From assembly GCA_010093815.1 (NCBI GenBank), contig ML996570.1: DNA of 64,000 nucleotides, one strand, 5' to 3'. Of the stretch, positions 1-23,195 are shown in pieces (the stretch's first letter is position 1; each line of letters opens with the position of its first letter). The position numbers were made by a program, and so were the translations under genes. The notes under the pieces were generated by a model. It did no database searches and was not told the DNA's origin. It saw nothing but the letters and a program-made list of their open reading frames with translations. The DNA is from Pseudovirgaria hyperparasitica (lineage: Eukaryota).

Positions 1-45
1 GGTATTGTGCTCGGTGTGTATTTTGGCGCCGTCAATCCTCCAGGC

Positions 46-3288: not shown

Positions 3289-4483
3289 TCATTCGCCAGG
3301 ATCGAGGAACGCGTCGTCGAATGCAGTTCCGTCACCACCGGTCGGACCATTCATCCAGTCTTCACTGTCGTCTTGGTCAAAGCTGAACAGATCATTGAAG
3401 TCATTCTGGTCGTTCGTGTTTATAGCATCTGTCGTCGTTGTAGCAGCTTGCTGTGCGGCGGCTGAGGTTGTTTGCAATGTCGTAGTGGCAGGAGCCGACG
3501 TAGTTGGGTTGGGATTGGAGACCTCTACTTGCAAGTCTGTTATGGTGAAATCGTCTATACCGTTACTGGAGTCTAGGTTCATGTCTCCTCCGCTGTTTGC
3601 ATAGTCCTCAAGGCCCGCGAGAAGAGAATTGGACGCGTTATCGCCTATGGCAAAGCCAAGGTCGTTGTCATTATCGTTGGTATCCATGTCTTGATCGTTG
3701 CTCAGATCCTCGAACATCTTGTCGATGTCGACGTTGCCGATCCCAGCAGTCGTAGGGGTCTTACCAAAGAGATCATCAGTAGCTGTGAGAGGGTTGTTAG
3801 TAGCCTCATGCTCAATCTCAGGGTCAGATTTCTTGCTCTGCTCGTTCGTTTGTGTCTGAATTGGTGGCGGCTTTACAGGCTGTGGGACCCTTGTGTCAGA
3901 AATGGATGTTGCATTCTTCTCCTCCTCGGGCATAATTGAAGGCTTCGCGTCGTCATTGGGTGCATCTCCCACATCTTCCATGTCCACGTCCTGCGTAGCT
4001 GTCGACTTCTTCTCTTCGTCAAGAGTTTCGGTCAGATCAGGCTTCTGCGGAGATGCAACGGCAGGGGCTGGCGCAGTCTTTTGCTTCTCTGCAGCCTCTG
4101 CCTCTCTCTTCTCTCGTTCCTTTTGCTTGACAGCTAGGTCTCTACGTATCACCCGTTGCGCAAACTTCTGTCTGGGTGATCAGCAGGTAGTAACAAAGCA
4201 ACCAACTAGACTGCTTACAATTTTAGTTGAAAGCTCATCCAGATGATTATGGTAGCTAGACAATGCAGCTGGAATGACTTTCTTCAAGCCACTCTGTGCA
4301 CGTTTTGAATCACGCAACGCAGGATCAGCAAAGAATCGACCGGTTTGCAACAACTACGTGCGTCAGCAAGGATCATGGCTCTATCAGTGCGAACGCCCTC
4401 ACCACTAGGTTCAACATGGCTTGAGCAGCATCAATCGGATGGTGTGGAGGCGGAGTCGCTACCTGCTGCTTCTGGGCATCCAT
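3289..4483 (-). CDS. Hypothetical protein of about 364 aa, probable Mediator tail subunit (Med2-like): helical N-terminus, acidic low-complexity C-terminus
   Basis: Exons 4403-4483, 4219-4353 and 3289-4167 join in frame via GTGAGG..TAG and GTAAGC..CAG introns. N-terminus MDAQKQQ...LLQTGRFF...LKKVIPAALSSYHNHLDELSTKIKFAQRVIRRDL, then a D/N/F-rich tail ending FDDAFLDPGE. The Med2 assignment is inference. Confidence 0.75.
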
Positions 4484-5812: not shown

Positions 5813-7498
5813 ATGTCTGACTCTACCCACTCCGGAGCATCTCTTCCTCCGAATCCAGCTTCTGCTGGAGCCCCAGGCTTCGATGGCCAGGGAAATCCCC
5901 AAGGCAACACCTCCCACATGCCGCCTCCAGCACTCGCCCCTGTCATTATCCCTCAAAACAACAACCCTATTCCAACTGCCATCGGCTCGCCCATGTCCGG
6001 CGGACTTACATCGCCTACCAGCGCTGGTGGCTTTGTTCGTCGCGCCGCTCCTGAGCCAAACAAGAGGGCTTTGTATATTGGTGGATTGGACTTACGTGTA
6101 ACGGAAGATGTCTTGCGTCAGATTTTCGAGACCACTGGACATGTCCAAAGTGTTAAGATCATTCCCGACAAGAACGTAAGTGAGACTGTAATCACGCCTC
6201 TATCTTCCATCATTTAGCCACAGCTGACACAGCCTGCTTCGTATCAGGCCAAAGGTTTCAATTACGGTTTTGTCGAGTATGACGACCCCGGTGCCGCCGA
6301 CCGCGCTATGAACACGCTCAATGGACGACGGGTTCTCAATAACGTAAGGGTCTACACTGTGCATAGTTCGAGGCAAGAAGGCTGAACGTAACAGGAAATT
6401 CGTGTGAACTGGGCATACCAGACCAACAATGCACCCAAGGAGGATACATCGAACCACTTCCATATCTTTGTTGGAGACCTCTCTAACGAGGTCAATGATG
6501 AAGTTCTCCAGCAAGCATTCGGAAATTTTGGGAACGTCTCAGAGGCGCGTGTCATGTGGGACATGAAGACCGGACGCTCCCGTGGATATGGTTTCGTTGC
6601 ATTCCGTGATCGCTCCGATGCTGAGCGTGCACTCTCGTCTATGGACGGAGAATGGCTTGGGTCTCGTGCTATTCGATGCAACTGGGCGAATCAGAAGGGC
6701 CAGCCTTCTATTTCTCAGCAGCAGGCTATGGCGCAGATGGGCATGACACCCACGACCCCGTATGGCCACCACCAGTACCCCACCCATGGCATCCAAAGCT
6801 ACGACATGATTGTCGCCCAGACTCCCGGATGGCAGACTACGTGCTACGTCGGTAATCTGACACCCTACACCTCGCAGTCTGATTTGGTGCCTTTGTTCCA
6901 AAACTTTGGCTATGTCGTCGAGACCCGCTTTCAGTCCGACCGCGGCTTCGCATTCATCAAGATGGACAACCACGAGAATGCCGCCATGGCAATCTGCAAC
7001 TTGAGTGGCTACAATGTCAACGGCCGTCCTCTTAAGTGCAGCGTATGTTGCTCAGCTCATTTACAATAATCAGTGCTAATTTGGTTCAATTTAGTGGGGA
7101 AAAGATCGTCCACCGACAGGGCAATTCGATGGGGGTGCCTATTCTCCGGCGCAGGGTCCCAGCTCCGCATATCCTCCTACCCCTAATGCATATTTTCCTC
7201 AATACGGTGGTCCAGGTGGCCCAATGTCTCCTCAATGTATGTACTATGCGTCAACTTCCACTGTACAGAAGCTAATCTATATTCCCTTTTAGCTGGACCT
7301 AGTCCAGGTGGACAACCAAACTATCAGGCCCAACAAGGCTTCGGAGGCCCAGGTATGGCCCAACCCTATCAGCAAATGCCACAGAATCAACCTGGATACG
7401 GGCGCGGAGGTGGTGGCCAACCCCAGGGTCAATGGCCTCAACAAAGCCCCGGAGGTTACGGCCAGGTGAACAATGGCTTTGGTGGCTACCAAGGCTAA
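5813..7498 (+). CDS. PUB1: Poly(U)/poly(A) RNA-binding protein Pub1/TIA-1 family, three RRMs with a Q/G/P-rich prion-like C-terminus
   Basis: RRM motifs LYIGGL, YGFVEY, IFVGDL, RGYGFVAF, CYVGNL and RGFAFIK; RAIRCNWANQK. Four short introns near 6176, 6344, 7043 and 7237. Confidence 0.93.
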
Positions 7499-9191
7499 AT
7501 CCATCCTACATGCATCGCTTGTCTGGGATTTTTGACTCTTCATAGACTCGGTCTGGCGCACTTCGTCTCCTATGTTTGGATATACCCGCCCGGCCCTGCT
7601 CCGTATTGAACGTTTCATGTGATCTCAGGATCAAGAATCTTAGCGCGTAATGTACGAGGCAAGCTAAAAGTATGTGGCTTGACCCATCATTGTTTTGGAA
7701 CCTATCGGACGAGACATATCTACTTTTCCTTACTTCCTCACTACATTACTGCAATATTCAGTCGACCTATCCTTGTCAGTTACCATTTTCTCCTTCATCT
7801 TCATGACTTTTTGGCTTCATGTCTTGGCCAAGCCTCCTCTCAAAAATGTGTGTATGTGTTGTTTCTGACTTCATATATTTGGGTTGGATTAATGAATTTC
7901 CTTGATCTTCCCATGGACCATCTACATGCTATGTTTCCTGCTGCCAAAGCGCATGTGAGCTTGTATTTATCTCCTTGAGGCTGTCCTCGCTCCCAAAAGT
8001 ATGACGAATTTTTCGATGCACTTCCCTTCGGCTGCTTGCTGCTCTTGCTTTCGCATGATACACGCACCATACATACCCTTATTCAGATAACAAACGGCTT
8101 TCTCTGTAACACACTTTGCTTCTTTCTACAGCATGCGCAAACATTGAATACCTAACGAAGCTTCACGCATCTCCTTGAGTTCTGCTGTTGCTGCTATGGC
8201 AGCACAGCGCTTCTCTTCGTTTCTTCGTTCCTTTTGAAACGGTTTCAAGAAAAACAAAATGAAAAGCGAGAATAGGGGTCCATACACATACCGTCATGTT
8301 TTGTCTTGTGTCGGTGTTGTGGGACAGTTTTGCTCGGGAACAAAAGGAGGTTTGGCTGGAATGGCTGGAATGGAGAGTAGCGGGTTGGGAAGAGTTTCTT
8401 GTTCAGAGCGGCAGAGGAAGATGATTTTTTTCTACTTTTATTCTTCTTCATGTCCTTGTTTTGCATTGTTTGGGATGTTTGGGCCAGGGATTGGCTAGAC
8501 TAGCTAGCTAGCTAGCTATAGTTGCGAGTTTGGCTGGATGATGCTGGAGTCGAGGGCATCTATGTTCGAACGAACGGTCGTACGTCAGCTGAAAATATAC
8601 ACTCTCCATTCTTCCCGATACTGCGTCTTCTTGGATTGTTGGCGTGCTTCCCCTAGCCACGTGTTGACGGATACATACATGGCCTGCTGATTGGCTCTGT
8701 TTTGGATTTGCACCCCTCGTTATTGACTTTAAGAAGTCATGACATCACAGATCTCTCTGTCGTTGAAAGACACCCTACAGCTGTGACAGATGCTCGCCCA
8801 GTCAACATGTAGAATCCAGGGGTCATACTGTAAGTCTCCGGCGTCATATACTTCCAATGCCTGCAGCGTTCGAAAACGTGTTGGCAATAAATATATCACC
8901 CGGTTCACCAACACAGTTTTATCGTGTGAAAGCGCCCACATACAGCGTAAAGAGCTAATCGAAGGCTTATTTATGAAAGAGGTGACCCACTTCAATACAT
9001 TGATTCTTTCAGTGTTGGCCTACTTTTGCGCAACGAGAAAGCAATCCGAAGAGACAACAATTTGAAAGACTCCGATGACAAGTCCTTAGCCATTTGATCC
9101 TCCGTATCGTGCTACCTTGGCTGTCTGTACTCGGTCCGAAGTTGTACACTGTGCTCTCCAGTAGAGTTGTGACAGACACACAACATGCAAC

Positions 9192-11367
9192 TTAGTTCAA
9201 AACGATCATACAGAGCCAGCCCCCGGCTCCAACGATGAGACTGAGCGCAACGACACTCCTGAGAATTCGCGTAGTTGCTAATAGACCTACCTTGGTAGCA
9301 CTGGAGGAAGTGTCCGGCTCGTGCATCGATGAAGTTGTGCATTCCTGTAGGTTGTCCAAAGCTATACGAGCGTTCGTTAGCATAGCTCATACCAATCATG
9401 CAATCTCATACCGTCATCTTCCTCACAAGCAATCTTAGTGATATCAACAAAGCAGAGTCGCTGCGCGTGCAAAACCCAAGTCCTTGTACATAGAGTTAGT
9501 TAAATAACACCATATTTGTCTCAGCGCGAATCGTAAAGAATCTTTCCGAGACCAGACAGATTGTGCTTTCCACTCACCCAAGGTTCTGCGATATCCATTT
9601 GCAACTTATAGGAACCACTTCACCACTGGCGATGGGAGAATTAGAGTCTTGTGTAAAAATTACGTTGTCCACGCAGTATTGGTCTTCGGTGCTTTGGCAT
9701 TCTAAAGGTTCGTCAAGCTTACTCAAGGCCGGAGTAGCAAGCGCCCCGATAGCTAACCACAGGCTAAGGAATGCTGTGAAGAGAAAAGTGGATGTGAAAT
9801 CCGAGCGGCGAGTGCTGCTGCCACTCGTGGCGCCGCAGCAGTCAGACTCCTGTTCTTGGGTGTCAGATGGCAACATTGGTATTCCGTTAAGATTGTCTAG
9901 AGGATAGCCAAGATTGGTCTCGTTGTATAGACACCTGACGTCGTTGCCATGAACTTGAGAATGTTCAGCCAAACATGAACACATGATCGACGAGCAATGA
10001 CTCACTGTTCTTCGGGCAACCTGACCATCCAGCTCGCACATAGCACTCATCATACGTGTAGATCCAATCCCTGGCCATGGTCAATAAAATGTTACACCAT
10101 AGTAGGTCTTTCAGCAGTCTTAGGCCTGCCGATAACCTGTGGATGCCACTGGTATACTTACGTGCCTGTGCCTAACAACGTCCCTGTGCTGCATTTTTTC
10201 TCGAAATGGTCACCAGGCATGTAGCGTATAATGGTCTTCCCGGAAATGATACATTCAGTCTCCTCATCAGGCCAGCAAGTTTCCCGATTTTGGTCTTTTG
10301 CCGACGCAAATGTAGCGAAGGCCGTGACGCCAAACCATAGACTGAGAACTAGGCTGAAGAATGGAAACGAGTAGATTACCGAGCGGCTACTGCCAGACGG
10401 AGAGTCTGATGTTTGGCTCGAGGCTTGGCCGCTGCAGAAGGCATCGAGACCTACAAGCGTCAGTTATCTCTTGATGAAACTGAGTTAAGGCTTACTTTCG
10501 CCGCCGTTAGCCTCGCAATAGAGTAAGGCTGCGGGTACATAGCATTGATCATGTTCGGAAAACCACCATTGCCTGCAACTAGTCAGCTGTGCGGGCCGTA
10601 GCAAAACATTGGAATGAATGGTGTTACTTACCCGACAGCAGGATCAACACAGCTGACCGTCAGGACAGCACCTAGAGGATACTGGATGAAGTGGTTGTTG
10701 AGGTCGTTTGTATTAGGGGTCTTGAAGCACTTGGCTATACCAGATATGGTAGTACAGTCCTGGATTTCCTTCTCCGTCGATGATGATGAGGCATAAACCG
10801 AGCTAGCGAACCAAAACCCAAGTAAAACAGTCAACAGAAGGGATGAAATCTTTCTGGAGCGGCTACTGCCTGAAGATTCATCCGAAGTTGACTGTGATGT
10901 CGGTTTTGGTGCTGGGCCGGAGGCCACGTCGCAGAAGGCGTTGATGTCTGAGCGCGAGGTAGTTAGCTTTGCCAAAGATGAATAGAAGTATAACCTCGAA
11001 TCCTACCTTCGCCCCCAGTAACCATACAATCGACATGGTCTGCAAAGACATAGCATTGATCACTAACGGAAAACCAGATTTGTCTATGACCAATGTCAGC
11101 TGTCTGAATTGTATTGTATCAAACTGATCTGTTCATGATTGAGACCCCTTACCCAGGAACAGGTATTGCGGATTTGGTGCAGGCGAGATCCAGTACAGTC
11201 CCTGGAAGATATTCGATGAATGGGTTACCAATGTCGTTTAAATTCTGGGTCTTGAAGCACTTGGTTAAGCCGAATGTGACGGTGCATTTCTGAGTAGGGT
11301 CTTGGGCATGCGTTGACGCGATGGCAACGACTAGTAGAGAAGATAGGGTGGCGGAAAAGAAAAGCAT
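9192..11367 (-). CDS. Secreted tandem-repeat protein, 551 aa: signal peptide plus four 6-Cys SH3b-like modules, each followed by a Ser-rich linker and hydrophobic segment (candidate polyprotein)
   Basis: Exons 11153-11367, 11007-11083, 10632-10947, 10496-10572, 10162-10450, 10006-10070, 9578-9953, 9412-9482 and 9192-9361 sum to 1656 nt with no internal stop. All 8 introns are GT..AG, most with a recognisable CTRAC-like branch site, and intron phases alternate 2,1 in every module. Confidence 0.88.
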
Positions 11368-12405
11368 GGGGATAACGTTAAAGATGACGATGGGGCGCTG
11401 TAGAGACCGATTGATAAGTATACTGGGAGTTCAATCGAGAGAGGTATTAGAGATGATGAAGAAGGAGAAGGAGAAGAAGAGAAAGAGTGCCGACCTTAAA
11501 AGGACTTCAATGCTCAAGGACTTGCCTTCCTTCCCATTGGATATCAAACAAGCAGCTGTGACCTGAACTCATGGAAGTCAACATCATTTTCCTTTGGGGT
11601 CATCACAAGCTGGAGTCATGGCCGTATACACTTCCTTTCTGGAAGGTGCTCTTTGGTACGGTCTCTCAGGACTTAACTTTAAATATTCAGATGCTATGTT
11701 TTCTGCTTAAATTGCAGAAGTACTGGCTAGGCCATCAAAATTTCGACTTCAAATACGCAAACCTTGTCAAGAGCATATTTGCGAATGTCTTGCATCATGT
11801 TTGAAAGTATGCTGAGCGCCTTCCGAACCTTGATGAGGTCAGGAGCGCGCATGCACGGTACGCTATACCTGCGTCTGCTGGCACCAGTGATGTTATAAAG
11901 GGTATGAGAAACAACGGTCAGCCATGTAGGACTAATTAACTTGGCGTCCATTGATGCAAGTATCAATGACTATGGATTGACTAATGAGCCGGACTGAATT
12001 GGATAGACGCGGTATAAACAAAGAGGGAAGAGGTCAGGCTGCGACAAGCTTGGAAATGAGTCGTGAGCAGGTCGATCATACCTGCTGGAGCCATACCTTC
12101 TCCATATGCCTTCAAAGAAATTTTCAATTCATTGCAAAGCTTAAGAATTGAATGAAGGTGCACTTTAATGTCCGTTGTGATAGCGAGTACAACCTCTCAT
12201 TTGATGAGAGATGATTGCGGTCACGTGCTCAGTTCCGATAAAGCACCAACGCGTTGCCATCGCGGAACTACGCGATTTCACGATATCTTCGATTCTCATT
12301 CCAGGACCGCTACAAATTGCATTGCTGCCCAGCTGGTCAGCTTCTGCGACACTTGCTACCGAAACCATCCTATTTTATCCAGCTGCCGCTTTTCTCTTCT
12401 CCTGT

Positions 12406-15331
12406 ATGCTTGTACTTATTCGCACGCTCTTGGCTGGTCCTAAAACGCCTCGCTTGACGCGACCCCCTACATGCTCGCTGCACTCAATACCACAACCGAC
12501 ATCCATTCAGTCACTTTGGGCGCGGCCTCTCTCTACTACAATGTTCAGGAAAGCTGTTGATGTCCAGAAATCATCACAGCCTAAGCCCAAAGCCCTCGCT
12601 CAGCAATTGTTTCCATCCAGCAGCCCAGATATACATCCCGAACCCAAGCATACGTCGCGACCGGGAGCTCAACCATTAGCCACTGTGAATGGAAATATCA
12701 TAAGACATAATCATAGGAATACCCAAACAGGGCCGGCTGCTCCCTACAAGCTGCCAAGCTCCGTGAGCGGTGTCAAGCGGACCTCAAGTGGCTTAGAGAA
12801 GGCTTTACAGGCGCAGAATAGTGGCTTTGAACATGCCACATCAAACAATGCGCAAACCTGCAATGGAGACATCAAACACGAGAGCAGAGCAGTGCCCCCT
12901 TCGGACAGAACGACATTTCACGATGAGGCCTTTTATGACGAAAATGACTTCGAGAGCGATTTGGACCTCGATGTTGAAGATCCCTCTACGATGCCTACAA
13001 TCGAGTATCCGAAGCTCCCAAACCGGCACCTAGACAGCACGAATCTTGGCCGCTCCATGTTCAAGCCCACTGCTCCAAATGCGGCCGCGATGGCAGCCAG
13101 GGAATACTCAGTGGATTCAGGGTATGGCACGCATAAATCTTCAACACCGTACATACACTCCGAAGTCCCACAGTCGAACACTTTTGCGACTCCCAAATTT
13201 AGAAACCCTCAGTTAGGTTTGAAGAGGGAACAAGAATCGGAAAGACAGACAATGAAGCCCGAGTCTACGATAAAAACTGAACAGTCCCCAGGCACCTTTC
13301 TTCAATCTTCTCAACGTGAGCCCCAGAGCAGTGCCGCTCTACCGTGGTCTTCATCGCCTGCTGAACACCTTCACTCGCCTCCAAAACACCTTCAGTTCGA
13401 ACGATTTGAATACCAACCTGCAGTGAAGGTGGAGCAGGGATGCACACAAGATGTGACTCCGCGACCGACAAAGCGGAGGACTCTACCGTGGTTGCAACAG
13501 GAGGCAGAAGAGAAAACTGCTGCGGAGCGACAAATGAAGATAGACAAGCCTAAGCAGAGCTACGCGGAACCGGCAACGTCATTCACACCCCTGCCGAAAA
13601 ATAAAGATGCTTCGACTACATATCCCTGGAATACGACCGCGAGCGCAATCAAGGCACAGCAGAAGAACTTGCGACAAGCAAACAAGAAACTTGTCAAAGA
13701 GAATGAAGCAACGGACGAAGGACTACGGAGAGCTATTGAGAAGACTAAAAAGAACAAGATCTCGCAGATATTTTTGAGCGAAGAGCAACAGCACATCCTT
13801 CACCTAGTAATCGAGAATAAGAAGAGCGTCTTTTTCACCGGTTCTGCTGGTACCGGTAAATCCGTATTACTGAGAGAGATAATCTCGGGCCTGCGGCGAA
13901 AATACGCCCGTGAGCCTGATCGCGTTGCAGTCACTGCCTCTACGGGCTTGGCGGCATGTAACGTTGGTGGCGTCACTCTACATAGTTTCGCTGGCATCGG
14001 ACTGGGCAAGGAGCCAGTGGAAGAGCTTGTGAAAAAGATCCGGCGTAATCAAAAAGCTCGCCACCGCTGGATGCGGACGAAGATACTCATCGTTGATGAG
14101 GTTTCAATGGTTGATGGTGAGATGATAGATAAGTTGGAATCTATCGCGCGAACGATCCGCAACAACGGCAGACCTTTTGGTGGAATCCAACTTGTCATCA
14201 CAGGAGACTTCTTCCAATTACCACCCGTTCCTGACAGCGGGAAAGTCGCAAAGTTCGCATTCGACGCAGGAACTTGGAATACTTGCATTGAACACACTAT
14301 TGCATTACATCATGTTTTCAGACAAAAAGATCCTGGTGCGTTCTGCAGCCATGTTATCAAATAGGAACACACTGACATATTGACTAGTATTCGCGAATAT
14401 GCTCAATGAAATGCGTGAAGGGCGACTCTCGCAAGCATCCATAACATCCTTCAGTTCTCTTTCCCGCGCTCTACCAGAGGACAATGGAGGTATACAAGCC
14501 ACAGAACTGTTCCCAACTCGTAACGAGGTCGACCGTGCGAATCACGTACGCATGCATGCTCTCCCTGGCGAAACCAAAGTTTTCGAAGCTAAAGACGGCG
14601 GCTCCATCATCGACAAGACCATGCGCGACAAACTTCTGTCGAATTGCATGGCTTCCGAGAAGATCGTTCTCAAGAAAGGGGCACAAGTCATGCTCATCAA
14701 GAATATCGACGATACTCTTGTCAATGGGTCCCTCGGTAAAGTTGTCGGCTTCATGTCCGAAGCCGAATTCGACAGCTACGACCAAGACGAAGAGAATTTC
14801 GCCGCTCTACAAGACGCCGACCCTCTCGATCTCAACCCGGCTCAGCAGCGTCAGAAAAGGAAGCTTGAAATCGCTGCGACCACGGCGCAGAAGTACCCAC
14901 TCGTACGCTTCGCCATTGCGGATGGTACGACGAGAGACCTGCTCTGTCAGCGAGAGACCTGGAAGGTCGAGCTGCCGAACGGTGAGGTGCAGGCCAGTCG
15001 TAGCCAAGTCCCACTGATCCTCGCGTGGGCACTCAGTATCCACAAGGCGCAGGGTCAAACTCTAGAGCGCGTAAAGGTCGACCTAGGAAAAGTGTTCGAA
15101 AAGGGCCAAGCTTACGTCGCGCTAAGTCGCGCAACAAGCATGCAAGGGCTACAAGTACTACGGTTTGACGCGCGGAAAGTCGTTGCTCACGACCGCGTCC
15201 GCAAATTCTATGCTGGACTCAGCCGAGCAGGCGAGAAAGGATGGACGGAGGGCGAAGCTGTCGGCGACACAGAAGGCGTGATGAATCGGATGATGAAAAA
15301 GGCGAAGAAAGTCGACAGTGGGACATTTTGA
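12406..15331 (+). CDS. PIF1: ATP-dependent 5'-3' DNA helicase Pif1 (SF1B)
   Basis: Walker A GSAGTGKS, TASTGLAA, LHSFAGIG, IVDEVSM, GDFFQLPPV, VFRQKD, LAWALSIHKAQGQTL and GQAYVALSRA. Intron 14336-14387. In-frame ATGs at 12406 and 12541. Confidence 0.96.
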
Positions 15332-16874: not shown

Positions 16875-18667
16875 CTACTGCTCGTCTCCCGAAACGCCCT
16901 CTAGCAAAATATACTCTAGGATATCACTAAGGGTCAGCACACCACGCAACTTGCTCTGCTCGTCAATAACAACCAATCGATGCACGCGTGACCGTCGGAT
17001 TGTGTCGAAGATGGTGTCAAGACGATCGTGTACGGAGCACGAGTAGATACCGGGAAAATCGTCTGGACGTTTGAGTAAGGCTTCGCCGACGGGAAGGGTC
17101 AGTTCGTCGTAGTTGCCGCCTTTGATGACAGATATGACATCCACAGATTCGAAGACGTTTATTACGGTGCCTAGGGGTGTGAGTTCAAAGTCTGGAAGGA
17201 ATATGTCCTGAGGGGCTCTGAGGTGGTGAAGCAAGCTTACCATCACGGTCCAGAATGGGTACGCTGGAGATGTTCTTGCGAACGAGCATGTGGATGATGT
17301 CGATGACGGGAGTCTCCATATTTGCGGTCTGAATGTTCTCGTATGTGCCTACATTCATGTCACGGAGTGGCTTCTGCAACATCTGCGTCTCCTTGACGTT
17401 GACGGCGATGAATTTGAGGATGCGGTATTGGGTGATGACGCTGACTACTAGAGGACGATCTGTTTCATCGTCAACATCTATCAATGGAATACGTCGAGCA
17501 CGAGATTGGAGCATCTTCCGACAAGCTTCGTAGAGCGGTTTCTCGGGGTGAATCGATACCGTTTCGATTGGAGCAACATGGAGGGCCTTTTCGATATCTG
17601 ATGCATGTTAGACTCATGTCCGTGCTTAGGCTTTGATAGTTGATCATCTTACCTCGAAGACTGTCCAGTCTGAATTGATCAACTTGTTCGAGAGCATGAG
17701 GATGCTGCCAGTAGTACTGAATGACATTGATGTAATCAGAGGTAGTCAGCAGACCGGCAAAGGTCGAGGAGGTAGAGTCCCACAGTGGGGCTGAGACAAT
17801 CGCTGCGTGGCACAGGGAAGTTAGTCAGAGCTACGAAGATGAAGTCCGCGGAGCACGTACCGTTTTGGAGAAGAATGTTTAGACTCTTTTTGACCAACAG
17901 GCGGGTGTCGAGGATGATCAAGCGGTAGCTTAGAGGGAGCACATCATAACTCGTCCGGAGCTTCAAGAAAGCTCGGATCGCTCGCTGTCAAGAAGAATTG
18001 AGTTAGCTCTTGGCTGATCGGGATGGATGATAGCAAGCCATACGGCGGTGAGGGACGATGCCAACGACTAGGGAGATAGCCACGTGGGGTGCCACAGACA
18101 CAGCGAAACAGATATCGGAGGTGCATGAACAGGAGTTTTGGTGCTTCCCCATGTCTCCGTGTCTTAGCGACGGCACGGCTCTTGTCACCGAGCCCGCGCG
18201 CCTGGCACACAAAGCTAGTCTCAGGGTAAATGTCATGGGACGGGGTAGTGATGGTGAGATGTGAGGAGGGGGGTTAGGGTGGGATGAGATGCAGGCAGTA
18301 AGTACCGCGGCGTCGCGCAGTCAGCACGCTGAGCAGACTTGAAATAAATCCTCGGACTCACCAATCCTTGAAGCTGTTCGCGGTCGACGGGGTCGTCGGA
18401 ATCGAGGAGAGATGTCGGCGTCATGGGTCTCGATGCAGGGCGAGGACGCAGGTACGAGGCCGGATGCACGACTTGGAAGGCCGGATTGGGGTGATTGGAG
18501 TCCGCGTGACCTCCAGCGGCCCCGATGAGACTCGGGCCACTACTGCTATTACCTAGATGGGAGGAGTAGCGAGTAGCATCATGTTGTTGTTGTTCATGAG
18601 CAGCTGGCTGGTTCTCTTCAAAAGGAGTTTCCCTTGCTCCCGGAGAGTTACTGGCCGAACCAGACAT
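16875..18667 (-). CDS. SNF4: AMPK/Snf1 complex gamma subunit (CBS domains)
   Basis: [59 protein letters not shown] and [18 protein letters not shown]. Exon 1 is 18362-18667, followed by a 377-nt first intron (17985-18361) and three short introns. Confidence 0.95.
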
Positions 18668-19847: not shown

Positions 19848-21581
19848 CTACTTCTTCTGCTGGGTCTCCTTGAGTGCATCAACGTTGAGCTCCGGCCCTG
19901 TATCCTCTTCCTCTTCCACAATCATGTTGGGTGTTGCTGTCTTTTCAAGACTGTCTCCCGATTCCAGTTGCTTCTTGGCCTGAGACACTATTGCTTCTGT
20001 CTCAGTCATGCCCTTCGGCTTGACTCCTTCAACTTCGACCCCCAAGGTTGGATCTTCCCGACGCTGCTTCAGCGCTTTATTGTCGAATCTAACGATCATG
20101 CACGAGAGGTTGTCTGTCGAGAACCGTGCAAGCGCGTGGTCCACCAGTTGCTTGGAAGCCGCTTGCGGATCTTGCATGTGTCGAACGAGATCGACTGCCT
20201 CCTGGTCCGAGCAGACATCCCACAGCTATGTATGGTCAGTAATCGTCAAAGTAATCACTTCTGCTGCACCTACTCCATCGCATGCTAGTATCAAGAACTC
20301 ATCAGAGTCCGGCTGTATGACCGTCTCCGTCGTGTAGGGATGGCCAGTCACTAGATCTTTCATGTAAGCATCTCCTAGAGCTCGAGTAACAGCAAGGACA
20401 CCATTGACACGGTTGTTGAGAATGAGTCCACCAGCATTTGCAACACGTCGGCCTTCGTTCTCGTCGCTTCCTTTGTGGTCGTATGAAAGTCGAAGGGCGC
20501 GTCCGTTTCGGCATAGAACAATGCGGGCGTCGCCGACATTGGCTGTGTACAGCACTCTCTGTCGTGAAGCACTCTCACGTAGTCTCGCCTCGGAGGCTAC
20601 AGGATCCGAAGACACGGTAGTTGTGACGTCTGAGCTATTCTGTGTTCCAGTGCTTGCCTCCCCAGCAGTTCCTTTGTTCGAGCCCTCGGTTGCTGATTTG
20701 ACGACTGCTGCTGCTGCTGGAGCAAAGAACGCCGACCCTGTAGCCGACTGGGAATTGGGCACTCGGTCTTCCCAACGGAGGACCGCGATGACAGCAGTAC
20801 ACCCGCTGTTCTTCAAAGGAAGTTTCTCCAGTTGAGTATCCACAGTGGTGAAGGTCTGGTCTAAAAGTTCGGGAATAGGTGTATTCGGGTTTCTTTTGAT
20901 AGTGTCCTCCAAGAGTAAATGTAGCTTCTTCCCACACCAGTCCGCAGCAAAAGTGCCGGCATGGCCATCAAATATGGCAAAGTATCCGTTGTCTGTCTCA
21001 ACGACTTGCTGCGTCCCATCAGAAACTGTACTTGAGTTCGTTTCTGTTTTTGATAGCTTGCTCTTAGCATCGCTATCTAGACCTAGCACAGGCGCTGGCG
21101 TGCTGAGGAAATTATAGAGATAGGCATGGGTATCTTCCATGGTGCGACGACATTTCCTGTTCTTGTCTTCCGTGACACCAACACGGAATGTGGATCGAGG
21201 TCCAGGCACCGATTCGCCGGCTGCATTGTTGAGAGATCCTGGCAGAACGCTCAGCGCCGGATCGCTCTTTGCGAGTTTCTGCATGGGTGTCTGTTGTGCT
21301 TTTGAATCTATGGGCGAGGATGAGGTGGGTGAGGAGCCAAGATGGAAGGACTGCTTCGCACTGGAGAATATGTCGCGAGCGCGCGAGCCTCTGCGCTTCT
21401 TTTCGGCTCCGTTCTCGTCGTCTTTGCGGTTAGGGCTGCCGCCTTCGCTGGACCGCTTCTCACCGCCGTTGCCGGGCTCGCTTGAGGTCGGGATGGTAGG
21501 AGTTCTTTGTGAATCGAGGGAGCTGGACGAATCTAAAGCAGAATCATCCTCTTTACTTAGCGTACCGGAGCTGCCGAACAT
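19848..21581 (-). CDS. PTC1: Type 2C protein phosphatase Ptc1
   Basis: [63 protein letters not shown] and STDNLS. Intron 20226-20273. Confidence 0.95.
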
Positions 21582-23195
21582 TCTGTTCAACAGACCTCCT
21601 TGGCTAGAAAAACTCCTCCGCTTATTTCCTGCCAGGTTGAAAGATGTGACGAGGGTCGTGCAGCTTCGAAGAGCCGTGGGTATTTATAGAGGGGTGCGGG
21701 GTTGGGTGGGTTTGTCGACGAAGTTCGTTGTTGCAGCAAGGTAGGCTGGGCAGGGCAGGCTGAGCCGTGCGTGCGGTTGAGTGATGGAGCGACAGGTCAG
21801 TCTGCAAGCCACAGGTGGTCAGCAAGCATGCGAGACGAAGCAAGTCACGTTGCTTTGTGTATGGTTTGACGCCGTACAAGCGCTGGGCCAACTCACGCTA
21901 GTCGCTGGCCTCGCGGCGAAGCAAGATCAGGTTGTTATGAAGTACAGCCGGGTGAGGACAGTGTTGGAACGGGCGAGAGTTGTAGTGTTGTGCAAGGTGA
22001 GCAGTGCAGATGAGAGTTTTGCTGTTGTTCGGAGAAGATCCGAAGGCAACGTGGAGATGCCGGATGCGCGAACGTTTGAAGGAGGGGGACGACTTGTGAA
22101 CGAGGGGACGAGGGAACGAGGGGACGTTGGAGGCAGGCCCGATGACGAAACCACGTTGTGGCTAATGATTAATACCTACGGGGAGGGCAGAGATGTGTTT
22201 GTGGCGGTATTATTGCCAGCTGAGATGGGATGGCTCGAACAATGTTGAGAGAAGATATATATGCATAAATATATAGATATTTGTTGGGCAAAAGGGTTCC
22301 CTGTCAAGTATGATAGCCAGGTCAGAGTTAATAAGGGGAGCAAACGGGTCATGCAGCAACAGCAGCAACCCATTGATTCATTCATTCATCCTCGGGCGCA
22401 ACCAGGGTGTGGAGACCACAATGGACTTAAGGGCCGCCAGGGGAGGGGTACCGTGAGTTGACAGACCTAGTTCGGTATTAGGTTCTCATTGCTGACGCCT
22501 AGGCCTCTGGGTCACTATTAAACAACATTCTGTCGACGAACAGAAGGCGTTCAAAAGTATCGCATCAGGCCGTCAGCGTGGTCTTTGTTACAGTGAGACT
22601 GCCGCAACGATGTATTCGTACAGCACGAAATATTTACCACGCGTACAAGACAGCTAGGACCGGCCGGGCTTCACGATGCATTAGATCTAGCTAGCCTGAG
22701 CCAGTCTGTGCTTGTAATACTATCTTGGAAAACTCTCGCAATATTGACATGGTATGCATAGTCTCAGCGTCTTGCGGATACCTCGTGGCGAAAAGCTTTT
22801 GCCTGCCTGGAGATATTGCCTGTTGCCATATGCAGCATGCAGCCGCAGCACTGACGAGGCAGATGAATGCTTAGCACACAGCCTTTCCACCCGACGTTCG
22901 CAGTGAGGCGCGTTCTAAGCGCCAGAGCTGCCGAAGCGCAGGCTTGTAGATGCCCCATTCCACAGATGGTACGACTTGAATGACGGACATCCACACCGGG
23001 TATCCTGTCTACCGTGCAATTTTTCTACCATGTACTGTCTGATGCATTGTCCTGAAAGCAATGCTGTTCGTTCCAATTGTGCCCAATTTGGCCTACCGTC
23101 CAAGTCTGCCTTAGGAGAGCCTCTAGATACGCCTTCACACCCAAACTCCATTACCAGCATGGCGTGTATTATGTTCATAATGAATGCTGTCTGTT

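Follow-up and report, generated by a model that had tools for sequence, protein, structure and literature searches.

What becomes of a secreted polypeptide chain that carries GPI-type signals between its domains as well as at its end? The question is raised by a gene of Pseudovirgaria hyperparasitica that lies within the 64,000-nucleotide stretch of genomic DNA analysed here (part of contig ML996570.1, assembly GCA_010093815.1; hereafter the window). GPI signals are, in the textbook description, strictly C-terminal, and secretory polyproteins are cut either at dibasic sites or at viral two-span junctions. A sequence-only reading of this DNA had described a single spliced open reading frame of 551 codons, encoding a signal peptide and four copies of a module made up of a six-Cys domain, a Ser/Thr linker and a hydrophobic segment, and had suggested that cleavage at the internal segments would release each module as a protein with a GPI signal of its own.

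The nine-exon, minus-strand gene model given in Table 1 reproduces this reading frame, and its product matches letter for letter the public entry XP_033601607.1/KAF2759156.1, a Pseudovirgaria hyperparasitica hypothetical protein. The single transcript that the earlier proposal called for is seen as one spliced form: in each of two sequencing runs, both from one sample of one study and of a kind that is not recorded, all 8 coding introns, every one with GT..AG ends on the minus strand, are removed in one contig with no further letter differences, and we infer that these contigs are RNA-derived. Both contigs also join the pieces on either side of a 5' UTR intron. An in-frame stop is located 4 codons upstream of this 5' UTR splice junction, so that there is no longer N-terminus and residue 1 is the true start. 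The contigs extend into neighbouring genes and transcript starts and ends are not visible from them, so internal transcript starts are possible; among the Met residues of the protein (positions 1, 92, 306, 373, 508 and 547) there is none that heads an internal hydrophobic segment.

Residues 1-21 are hydrophobic and end in T-H-A, as expected by eye for an ER signal peptide, and are followed by four paralogous units (residues 22-150, 151-279, 280-419 and 420-551), each consisting of a 6-Cys domain, a Ser/Thr stalk, a cluster of small residues, basic residues and a hydrophobic segment of 20-27 amino acids, in agreement with the modular layout described earlier. The spacing of the first six Cys residues matches among units 1 to 4 (gaps of 9/26/19/9/12, 9/26/16/9/12, 8/20/19/9/11 and 8/24/18/9/12, respectively) and intron phases alternate 2,1 in each of them. 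Pairwise identity is 48% for units 1 and 2 and 17-27% for the remaining five pairs, and the repeat reflects homology and not chance. The count of six Cys per module needs a correction: the conserved six are present in all units, and there are extra Cys residues at 385 and 386, in the linker of unit 3, and at 546, in the tail of unit 4. For units 1 and 2, the one pair in which dS is not saturated and to which the comparison of rates is limited, differences amount to a pN of 0.34 vs a pS of 0.64, and to 0.37 vs 0.79 in the linker and junction. Retention of Cys spacing and intron phases at 17-48% identity, together with pN < pS for this pair, argues that the units, including their junctions, are constrained and that all of them are used. 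They would have arisen by in-frame tandem duplication of a segment running from the mature N-terminus through the end of the GPI tail.

Table 1. Features of the gene, with positions in the window
Feature	Position	Strand	Basis or detail
Whole coding region	9192..11367	-	9 exons, 8 introns, 551 codons + stop (9192-9194)
Exons 1-5	11367-11153, 11083-11007, 10947-10632, 10572-10496, 10450-10162	-	spliced ORF
Exons 6-9	10070-10006, 9953-9578, 9482-9412, 9361-9192	-	spliced ORF
5' UTR intron, 97 nt, GT..AG	11398..11494	-	pieces 11153-11397 and 11495-11800 adjoin in both contigs
N-terminal signal peptide, residues 1-21, ends T-H-A	11305..11367	-	hydrophobic; -3/-1 rule by eye
Unit 1 domain, Cys28 to Cys103	10931..11286	-	residue mapping; two introns within
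S-G-S-S (123-126), candidate omega site 1, then R-S-R-K	10862..10873	-	sequence
Junction segment J1, residues 131-150 (20 aa), Trp143, V-Y-A end	10790..10849	-	hydrophobic peak
Unit 2 domain, Cys162 to Cys234	10434..10756	-	residue mapping
S-G-S-S (247-250), candidate omega site 2, then R-S	10386..10397	-	sequence
Junction segment J2, residues 253-279 (27 aa), Trp267, ends A-F-A (274) and A-S-A (279)	10299..10379	-	hydrophobic peak
Unit 3 domain, Cys287 to Cys354	9931..10277	-	residue mapping
S-G-S-S (390-393), candidate omega site 3, then T-R-R-S	9814..9825	-	sequence
Junction segment J3, residues 399-419 (21 aa), Trp412, A-L-A end	9736..9798	-	hydrophobic peak
Unit 4 domain, Cys432 to Cys503	9339..9699	-	residue mapping; weak Pfam PF24679 match at 443-514
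C-terminal hydrophobic tail, residues 532-551, Trp544, V-L-N then stop; candidate terminal GPI signal	9195..9254	-	hydrophobic peak

The four junction and terminus strings quoted in the sequence-only reading are all found exactly as quoted, and its statement that the internal segments fit both a GPI-attachment signal and a signal-peptidase substrate is upheld, a basic N-flank, a small-x-Ala end and a small-residue site with spacer being present in each. S-G-S-S occurs in all three junctions, followed by 1-3 basic residues, and when the rule for GPI signals (small residues at omega to omega+2, ~5-10 polar spacer residues, hydrophobic tail) is applied by eye, the pattern (S-G-S-S, 4-8 polar or basic residues, hydrophobic stretch) is found in 3/3 cases. 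The terminal unit has S-S-S-A, with an unusually long spacer to the hydrophobic tail. The Gly lies 26 and 28 residues from the unit end in junctions 1 and 3 and 31 residues from it in junction 2, where the first A-F-A is reached after 26; GPI propeptides usually have such a length. In units 1, 3 and 4 a Trp is placed exactly 7 residues before the unit end, and in unit 2 the same distance separates the Trp from the first A-F-A. This constant offset implies that the true C-terminus occupies a position homologous to those at which the internal cuts are proposed. Small-x-Ala ends are confined to the internal copies, VYA, AFA/ASA and ALA vs the terminal VLN, and the -3/-1 residues at the ends of all three junctions are small and uncharged, as the rule for signal peptidase has it. 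The charge bias is also the same at all three, basic ahead of the segment and neutral or acidic behind it. The flanks show a further asymmetry: by our own count the Ser/Thr/Pro-rich stalk ahead of each junction has ~13-37 residues, and the following unit reaches its first Cys only 7-13 residues after the junction. Each junction shows a single hydrophobic peak, of 20, 27 and 21 residues, with a Gly within every segment. A hydrophobic tail at the very C-terminus is found in unit 4 only, as 401, 272 and 132 residues are still to come after units 1, 2 and 3. Because the junctions are paralogues, features that they have in common are not three independent observations.

The Kyte-Doolittle 19-residue means of the four segments lie between 1.73 and 2.43, and a topology predictor would by default call a multipass protein whose junctions and tail are four transmembrane helices; units 1 and 3 would then face outward, and units 2 and 4 would be cytosolic. 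We consider such an arrangement quite improbable since units 2 and 4 share their six-Cys spacing and Ser/Thr stalks with units 1 and 3 and since the charge bias across the three junctions is the same, not alternating. Four domains with the same 6-Cys spacing and with fewer non-synonymous than synonymous differences (units 1 and 2) should all be extracytoplasmic, in which case a junction with one hydrophobic segment cannot span the membrane in the ordinary way; the earlier argument that cytosolic placement of alternate modules is implausible is borne out. Hydrophobicity sums, from an approximate scale, are +1.10, +0.22 and -0.43 for J1 to J3, +0.57 for the N-terminal signal peptide and -1.29 for the terminal tail; on this approximate scale the junctions bracket the signal peptide and are weaker than the tail. 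Processing of the chain into separate products appears to be the best reading of these features.

Several well-known classes of protein share parts of this layout. Fungal repeat precursors processed by Kex2 (alpha-factor, Ustilago Rep1) likewise place several tandem products behind one signal peptide in one fungal ORF; their cleavage takes place in the Golgi, at KR/RR within hydrophilic spacers, whereas the fungal gene studied here has hydrophobic spacers and an RR at only 1/3 junctions. With the RR at 395-396, in junction 3, as the sole KR/RR in the protein, the pattern of a Kex2-processed repeat precursor, which calls for KR or RR at every junction between repeats, is not present; the earlier remark that the junctions have no conserved KR/RR is to be qualified by this one site. 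Viral envelope polyproteins, too, give rise to several lumenal domains by cleavage of one chain at hydrophobic stretches with small-x-small ends. At the junctions of Flaviviridae prM/E/NS1 and of HCV E1/E2 a stop-transfer is followed by the next signal, as two spans or as a hairpin, whereas each fungal junction is a single 20-27 residue segment with a GPI-type site ahead of it. The viral type of signal-peptidase polyprotein fits only in part, as the small -3/-1 residues are there in 3/3 junctions but there is one peak per junction in place of two stretches or a hairpin. Small Cys-rich GPI proteins of the fungal wall or membrane have a short mature N-terminus, a disulfide domain, a Ser/Thr stalk, small residues, a spacer and a hydrophobic tail; the same layout is found in each single unit here, the difference being that four units are fused without a stop, a start or a second hydrophobic segment between them.

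Two enzymes could act at such junctions, and their order matters. In the established model signal peptidase needs an N-in/C-out loop. The sequence-only reading had signal peptidase cut after each junction during translocation, leaving the transamidase to use ordinary C-terminal GPI signals thereafter. This order would make use of the small-x-Ala ends, which in 3/3 internal segments stand right before a polar stretch and which the terminal tail does not have, of the basic N-flank and neutral or acidic C-flank of every junction, and of a Gly-to-cut distance of 26-31 residues that suits a C-terminal GPI propeptide. It is nevertheless rather improbable, because with one hydrophobic segment per junction and the upstream unit already lumenal there is no N-in/C-out loop, and because a result obtained with a chimera goes against it. 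In the THA-HA chimera (Finidori 1987, J Cell Biol 104:1705, PMC2114505) a signal peptide was placed, as in the fungal chain, between two lumenal domains of a translocating chain; signal peptidase reportedly failed to recognise this signal peptide, located after a domain already in transit, and the peptide crossed the membrane, a result that speaks against the peptidase-first step and for full translocation. Unlike the fungal junctions, this signal had no omega-site region ahead of it, and it was reportedly neither cut nor retained in the membrane. The DAF-hGH chimeras (Caras 1991, J Cell Biol 113:77, PMC2288913) resemble the fungal protein in having one N-terminal signal peptide, an upstream domain, an omega region, a hydrophobic stretch and a downstream secretory domain. 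In these chimeras an internal GPI signal reportedly still yielded GPI-anchored upstream DAF, including when the hGH signal peptide was the hydrophobic part, and a hydrophobic tail at the extreme C-terminus was reported not to be absolutely required for GPI anchoring. These chimeras are artificial, two-part and expressed in COS cells, whereas the fungal gene is natural, has four homologous units and is known from sequence alone. As an internal GPI signal works in one chimera and an internal signal peptide stays uncut in the other, the transamidase-first order is the more likely of the two. Both precedents are mammalian-cell or in-vitro systems.

We therefore favor, with a probability of roughly 0.4, cleavage by GPI transamidase first and trimming by signal peptidase second, by which the four-unit precursor would give rise to anchored proteins. 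The N-terminal signal peptide would bring the chain into the ER, and the junctions, being marginally hydrophobic and signal-peptide-like, would not stop transfer, so that all four disulfide domains would be lumenal. GPI transamidase would then recognise an internal GPI signal in every junction, made up of the S-G-S-S omega region, the basic spacer of 5-8 residues and the hydrophobic stretch; the enzyme's cut would anchor units 1-3, with unit 4 anchored via the terminal signal. Downstream products would begin with a left-over hydrophobic peptide ending in small-x-Ala, which signal peptidase may trim, and one mRNA would in this way yield as many as four individual surface proteins, each small and Cys-rich. 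That the gene encodes a natural ER polyprotein in which a junction is the GPI signal of the preceding unit and then the cleavable signal-type peptide of the next is a proposal that we make tentatively. The sums for J3 (-0.43) and J2 (+0.22) are perhaps such that these segments are hydrophobic enough for membrane integration, a possibility that counts against the transamidase-first reading, as does the long spacer of the terminal signal. Nor do we know of a precedent for cleavage by signal peptidase when the N-terminus of its substrate is already in the lumen.

The chain might instead remain uncut, with its junctions in the lumen, or as in-plane or re-entrant helices in the outer leaflet; a single large protein with all four domains would then be attached through the terminal GPI signal and possibly also through the junctions. 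Their marginal hydrophobicity sums on the approximate scale and the Gly inside each segment are consistent with such a protein, which we regard as unlikely given that exposed hydrophobic segments of 20-27 residues would be expected to draw ER quality control and that small-x-Ala ends on the internal copies alone would be left unexplained. The chimeras bear on both sides of the matter: the internal signal of THA-HA was reportedly translocated without cleavage (Finidori 1987, PMC2114505), whereas a lumenal pattern of S-G-S-S, spacer and hydrophobic stretch is what the transamidase reportedly used in DAF-hGH (Caras 1991, PMC2288913).

Searches for homologues returned little besides the protein itself. 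A phmmer search with the 104-aa exon-3 piece against 1.84 billion representatives gave the self match only, as did a word-based search with the whole protein among 8000 scored 'near' candidates; of the 'shorter' candidates none of 4227 reached E <= 10 with the whole protein, and region 22-112 yielded no candidate in the 'shorter' class. Pattern matches in metagenome contigs (25, then 412) led to no confirmed case, a search of the PDB by sequence gave one chance-level row with an E of 2.2, and tblastn detected no second copy within the window. The order Acrospermales, to which the fungus belongs, is sparsely sequenced, so that missing homologues are weak evidence for uniqueness of the gene. An orphan gene, with no relatives found in these searches and with units 3 and 4 strongly diverged, is also what one might see if only unit 1 (or units 1 and 2) became a working anchored protein, the remainder being a degraded read-through remnant. 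Such an accident is very unlikely in the light of ~400 downstream codons that are still open, of 6 further introns that retain their GT..AG ends and phases and are spliced, and of six Cys residues per unit retained at 17-27% identity.

Were the transamidase-first reading to be correct, the protein would be the first substrate from nature to carry GPI signals internally and would represent a new route to stoichiometric sets of anchored proteins; no natural internal GPI signal or GPI polyprotein was found in the open-access literature. A natural, expressed and constrained gene with GPI-type signals between lumenal domains would show the 1991 chimera result used in nature, and the system would help to probe how segments of marginal hydrophobicity are sorted by the translocon, the transamidase and signal peptidase. 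Annotators now label such proteins as multipass membrane proteins, a practice to which this case would alert them. Pseudovirgaria hyperparasitica is a mycoparasite of rust fungi, and the products may thus be surface proteins relevant to that interaction.

With regard to the fold of the units, none of the five exon pieces matched a Pfam family, and a search with the whole protein gave Nodulin_C (PF24679) in unit 4 only, at 17.2 bits and an E of 0.0051, below the gathering score of 26.5 bits; no mention of PF24679 was found in the literature. AF2 models are of low confidence, both for the whole protein (pLDDT 39.2) and for unit 4 alone, which is predicted as all-beta (pLDDT 53.4). A Foldseek search of the PDB with the low-confidence AF2 model gave none at E <= 0.001 among the 495 matches listed, and in the VIA wide comparison 173 chains were found at Z >= 2, none at Z >= 5, the best being 3.5. 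The nearest predicted-structure neighbours of the Atlas models for units 1 and 4 are clusters with bacterial SH3b domains (SH3_3, PF08239, or GW, PF13457), with TM values of 0.42-0.50 for unit 1 and 0.63-0.72 for unit 4, and the units are possibly SH3b-like, which we offer as a lead only. Pfam SH3_3 itself gave no match at E <= 10 with either the whole protein or the 5 exon pieces, and the bacterial domains are without the six conserved Cys residues of the fungal units. The sole N-x-S/T sequon of the protein is at position 357, directly past the unit 3 domain.

Removal of eight short GT..AG introns (45-95 nt) from the minus strand between 11367 and 9192 leaves 551 codons in 1656 nt of coding sequence, and their translation is identical to P0001, the public model XP_033601607.1/KAF2759156.1, which is annotated as a 'hypothetical protein'. 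The model comes from Pseudovirgaria hyperparasitica, a member of the Acrospermales (Dothideomycetes) that has been described as mycoparasitic on rust sori (PMC3317363). Two public sequencing runs, from one sample and one study, share 0.61 of the words sampled from 9100-11500, and in one contig per run 8/8 coding introns are missing with borders exactly as modelled and no other difference from the window. The four-unit spliced ORF described in the sequence-only reading is thus confirmed, and every string quoted there occurs in the protein exactly as written. We infer that these contigs are assembled transcripts, the kind of run not being on record; they may be the same data that the annotators used and hence are not independent confirmation of the gene model. 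The contigs, 5.8 and 5.2 kb long, extend beyond both gene ends into neighboring genes (8800-11800 and beyond), probably through overlapping UTRs or unstranded assembly, and cannot reveal RNA starts or ends, so that the gene's own transcript ends are not fixed by them. Both also skip a 5' UTR intron, whose joint was left out of the joints table because of a purine-rich simple repeat at 11448-11490. When the reading frame is followed back across this splice, it reaches a stop four codons upstream of the junction, which makes the first Met the initiator and leaves the first hydrophobic stretch genuinely N-terminal.

Each of the four units contains six Cys with nearly equal gaps (9/26/19/9/12, 9/26/16/9/12, 8/20/19/9/11 and 8/24/18/9/12 in units 1-4) and two introns in the same places, in phases 2 then 1, enclosing middle exons of 77, 77, 65 and 71 nt. 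Downstream of the sixth Cys is a Ser/Thr/Pro-rich stretch, followed in units 1-3 by S-G-S-S (the candidate omega region), 1-3 basic residues and a hydrophobic junction segment (J1, J2 and J3, of 20, 27 and 21 residues, respectively), and in unit 4 by S-S-S-A, a longer spacer, a 20-residue tail and the stop. The unit 3 stalk carries an extra Cys-Cys at residues 385-386 (window ~9835-9840, minus strand) just ahead of S-G-S-S, and the sole N-x-S/T sequon of the protein is at residue 357, also in unit 3. A Trp is found exactly 7 residues ahead of the unit end in units 1, 3 and 4, a detail not used in the earlier reading; in unit 2 it is 7 residues ahead of a first A-F-A, after which five further residues (275-279, window 10299-10313, minus strand) give a second end, A-S-A, as if a short piece around the cut site had been duplicated. 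The constant distance marks the real C-terminus and the three proposed cut sites as homologous positions, and the repeated unit thus begins at the mature N-terminus and closes with the final residue of a GPI-type tail.

Units 1 and 2 are 48% identical, with pN 0.34 < pS 0.64 overall and pN 0.37 < pS 0.79 in linker plus junction, synonymous sites being saturated for all other pairs. The remaining five pairs share 17-27% identity, and despite this every Cys is kept; past junction 1, ~400 codons stay open and six more introns are kept and spliced. Taken together, these features argue that all four units are in use, and we regard a largely non-functional read-through as very improbable.

Two domains joined by one membrane span end up on opposite sides of the membrane. 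On the grounds of homology, the disulfide-type Cys pattern and the Ser/Thr stalks, all four domains should be extracytoplasmic. The charge bias is the same at J1, J2 and J3, with basic residues ahead of the segment and neutral or acidic ones behind it, which is at odds with an alternating multipass protein and leaves that topology improbable. By the approximate insertion sums listed below, the junctions appear marginal and signal-peptide-like rather than strong anchors, and would therefore be either removed or not membrane-spanning. We consider it unlikely that the four domains stay joined in one uncut protein whose junctions lie in the lumen or in the plane of the membrane.

Features of the gene and its surroundings (insertion sums are simple sums on a membrane-insertion scale and are approximate)
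Feature	Residues	Window position	Strand	Insertion sum	Remarks
Signal-peptide-like stretch	1-21			+0.57	N-terminal
Unit 1	22-150
J1				+1.10
Unit 2	151-279
J2				+0.22
Unit 3	280-419
J3				-0.43
Unit 4	420-551
Terminal tail				-1.29
5' UTR intron		11398-11494	-		97 nt, GT..AG; skipped in both contigs
296-aa open frame		3289-4179	-		acidic, Thr/Asp/Asn-rich; no Pfam family at E <= 0.001
Two-RRM RNA-binding protein		6392-7069	+
PIF1-type DNA helicase		12208-15331	+		two large ORF pieces; PF05970 E 8.5e-46, Pif1_2B E 2.9e-11; divergent from this gene
CBS-domain protein		16875-17348	-
PP2C phosphatase		20226-21683	-

Signal peptidase needs small residues at -3 and -1, whereas a GPI tail or membrane span does not. 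The internal units end in V-Y-A, A-F-A/A-S-A and A-L-A, in contrast to the terminal V-L-N, and this restriction of small-x-Ala to internal ends is suggestive of signal peptidase use, with the proviso that the junctions are paralogous and so do not amount to three independent observations. Met is absent from the head of every internal segment, and the only KR/RR in the whole protein is an RR in junction 3; four separate genes and a Kex2-type precursor, respectively, were rejected on this basis.

Experiments with chimeras bear on the order of events. A signal peptide placed behind a translocating domain escaped recognition by signal peptidase and, rather than halting transfer, itself crossed the membrane (Finidori et al. 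1987, PMC2114505), while a GPI signal between DAF and hGH still yielded GPI-anchored DAF, even with the hGH signal peptide as its hydrophobic part (Caras 1991, PMC2288913). The DAF/hGH construct is an artificial counterpart of the present junctions, and the two studies favor full translocation followed by GPI transamidase. We therefore propose, with a probability of about 0.4, a polyprotein in which the whole chain would be translocated and transamidase would cut at each S-G-S-S region, leaving the next unit headed by a residual hydrophobic peptide, whose small-x-Ala end could permit trimming by signal peptidase. The sequence-only reading had signal peptidase acting first; its architecture and topological argument stand, but that order probably does not, given the Finidori chimera and the loop orientation that the peptidase needs, which is out of reach for a lone segment preceded by a lumenal domain, and we judge it rather improbable. 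The design combines known signals in what appears to be a new way, and open-access full text yielded neither a natural protein carrying GPI signals internally nor a GPI polyprotein. If processed as proposed, the chain would offer the first example in nature of GPI signals used internally.

As to the domain itself, no Pfam family was matched at E <= 10 among five exon pieces, and with the whole protein only PF24679 Nodulin_C was obtained, on unit 4 and sub-threshold (17.2 bits vs a cut-off of 26.5). In the protein Atlas, whose neighbors count as leads only, units 1 and 4 are nearest by features to the same unnamed Ascomycota clusters (349, 129 and 119 aa; scores 0.79-0.86) and by predicted structure to SH3_3 or GW clusters (TM 0.42-0.50 for unit 1, 0.63-0.72 for unit 4). 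AlphaFold models are poor (pLDDT 39.2 for the whole protein, 53.4 for unit 4), that of unit 4 being all-beta, and comparison of these low-confidence models with PDB structures gave no clear match. The domain may reasonably be guessed to be a small SH3b-like barrel braced by disulfides.

No homologue was found by any search route, nor a second copy of the gene within the window. The genomic setting is one of housekeeping genes, with no obvious effector or subtelomeric cluster.
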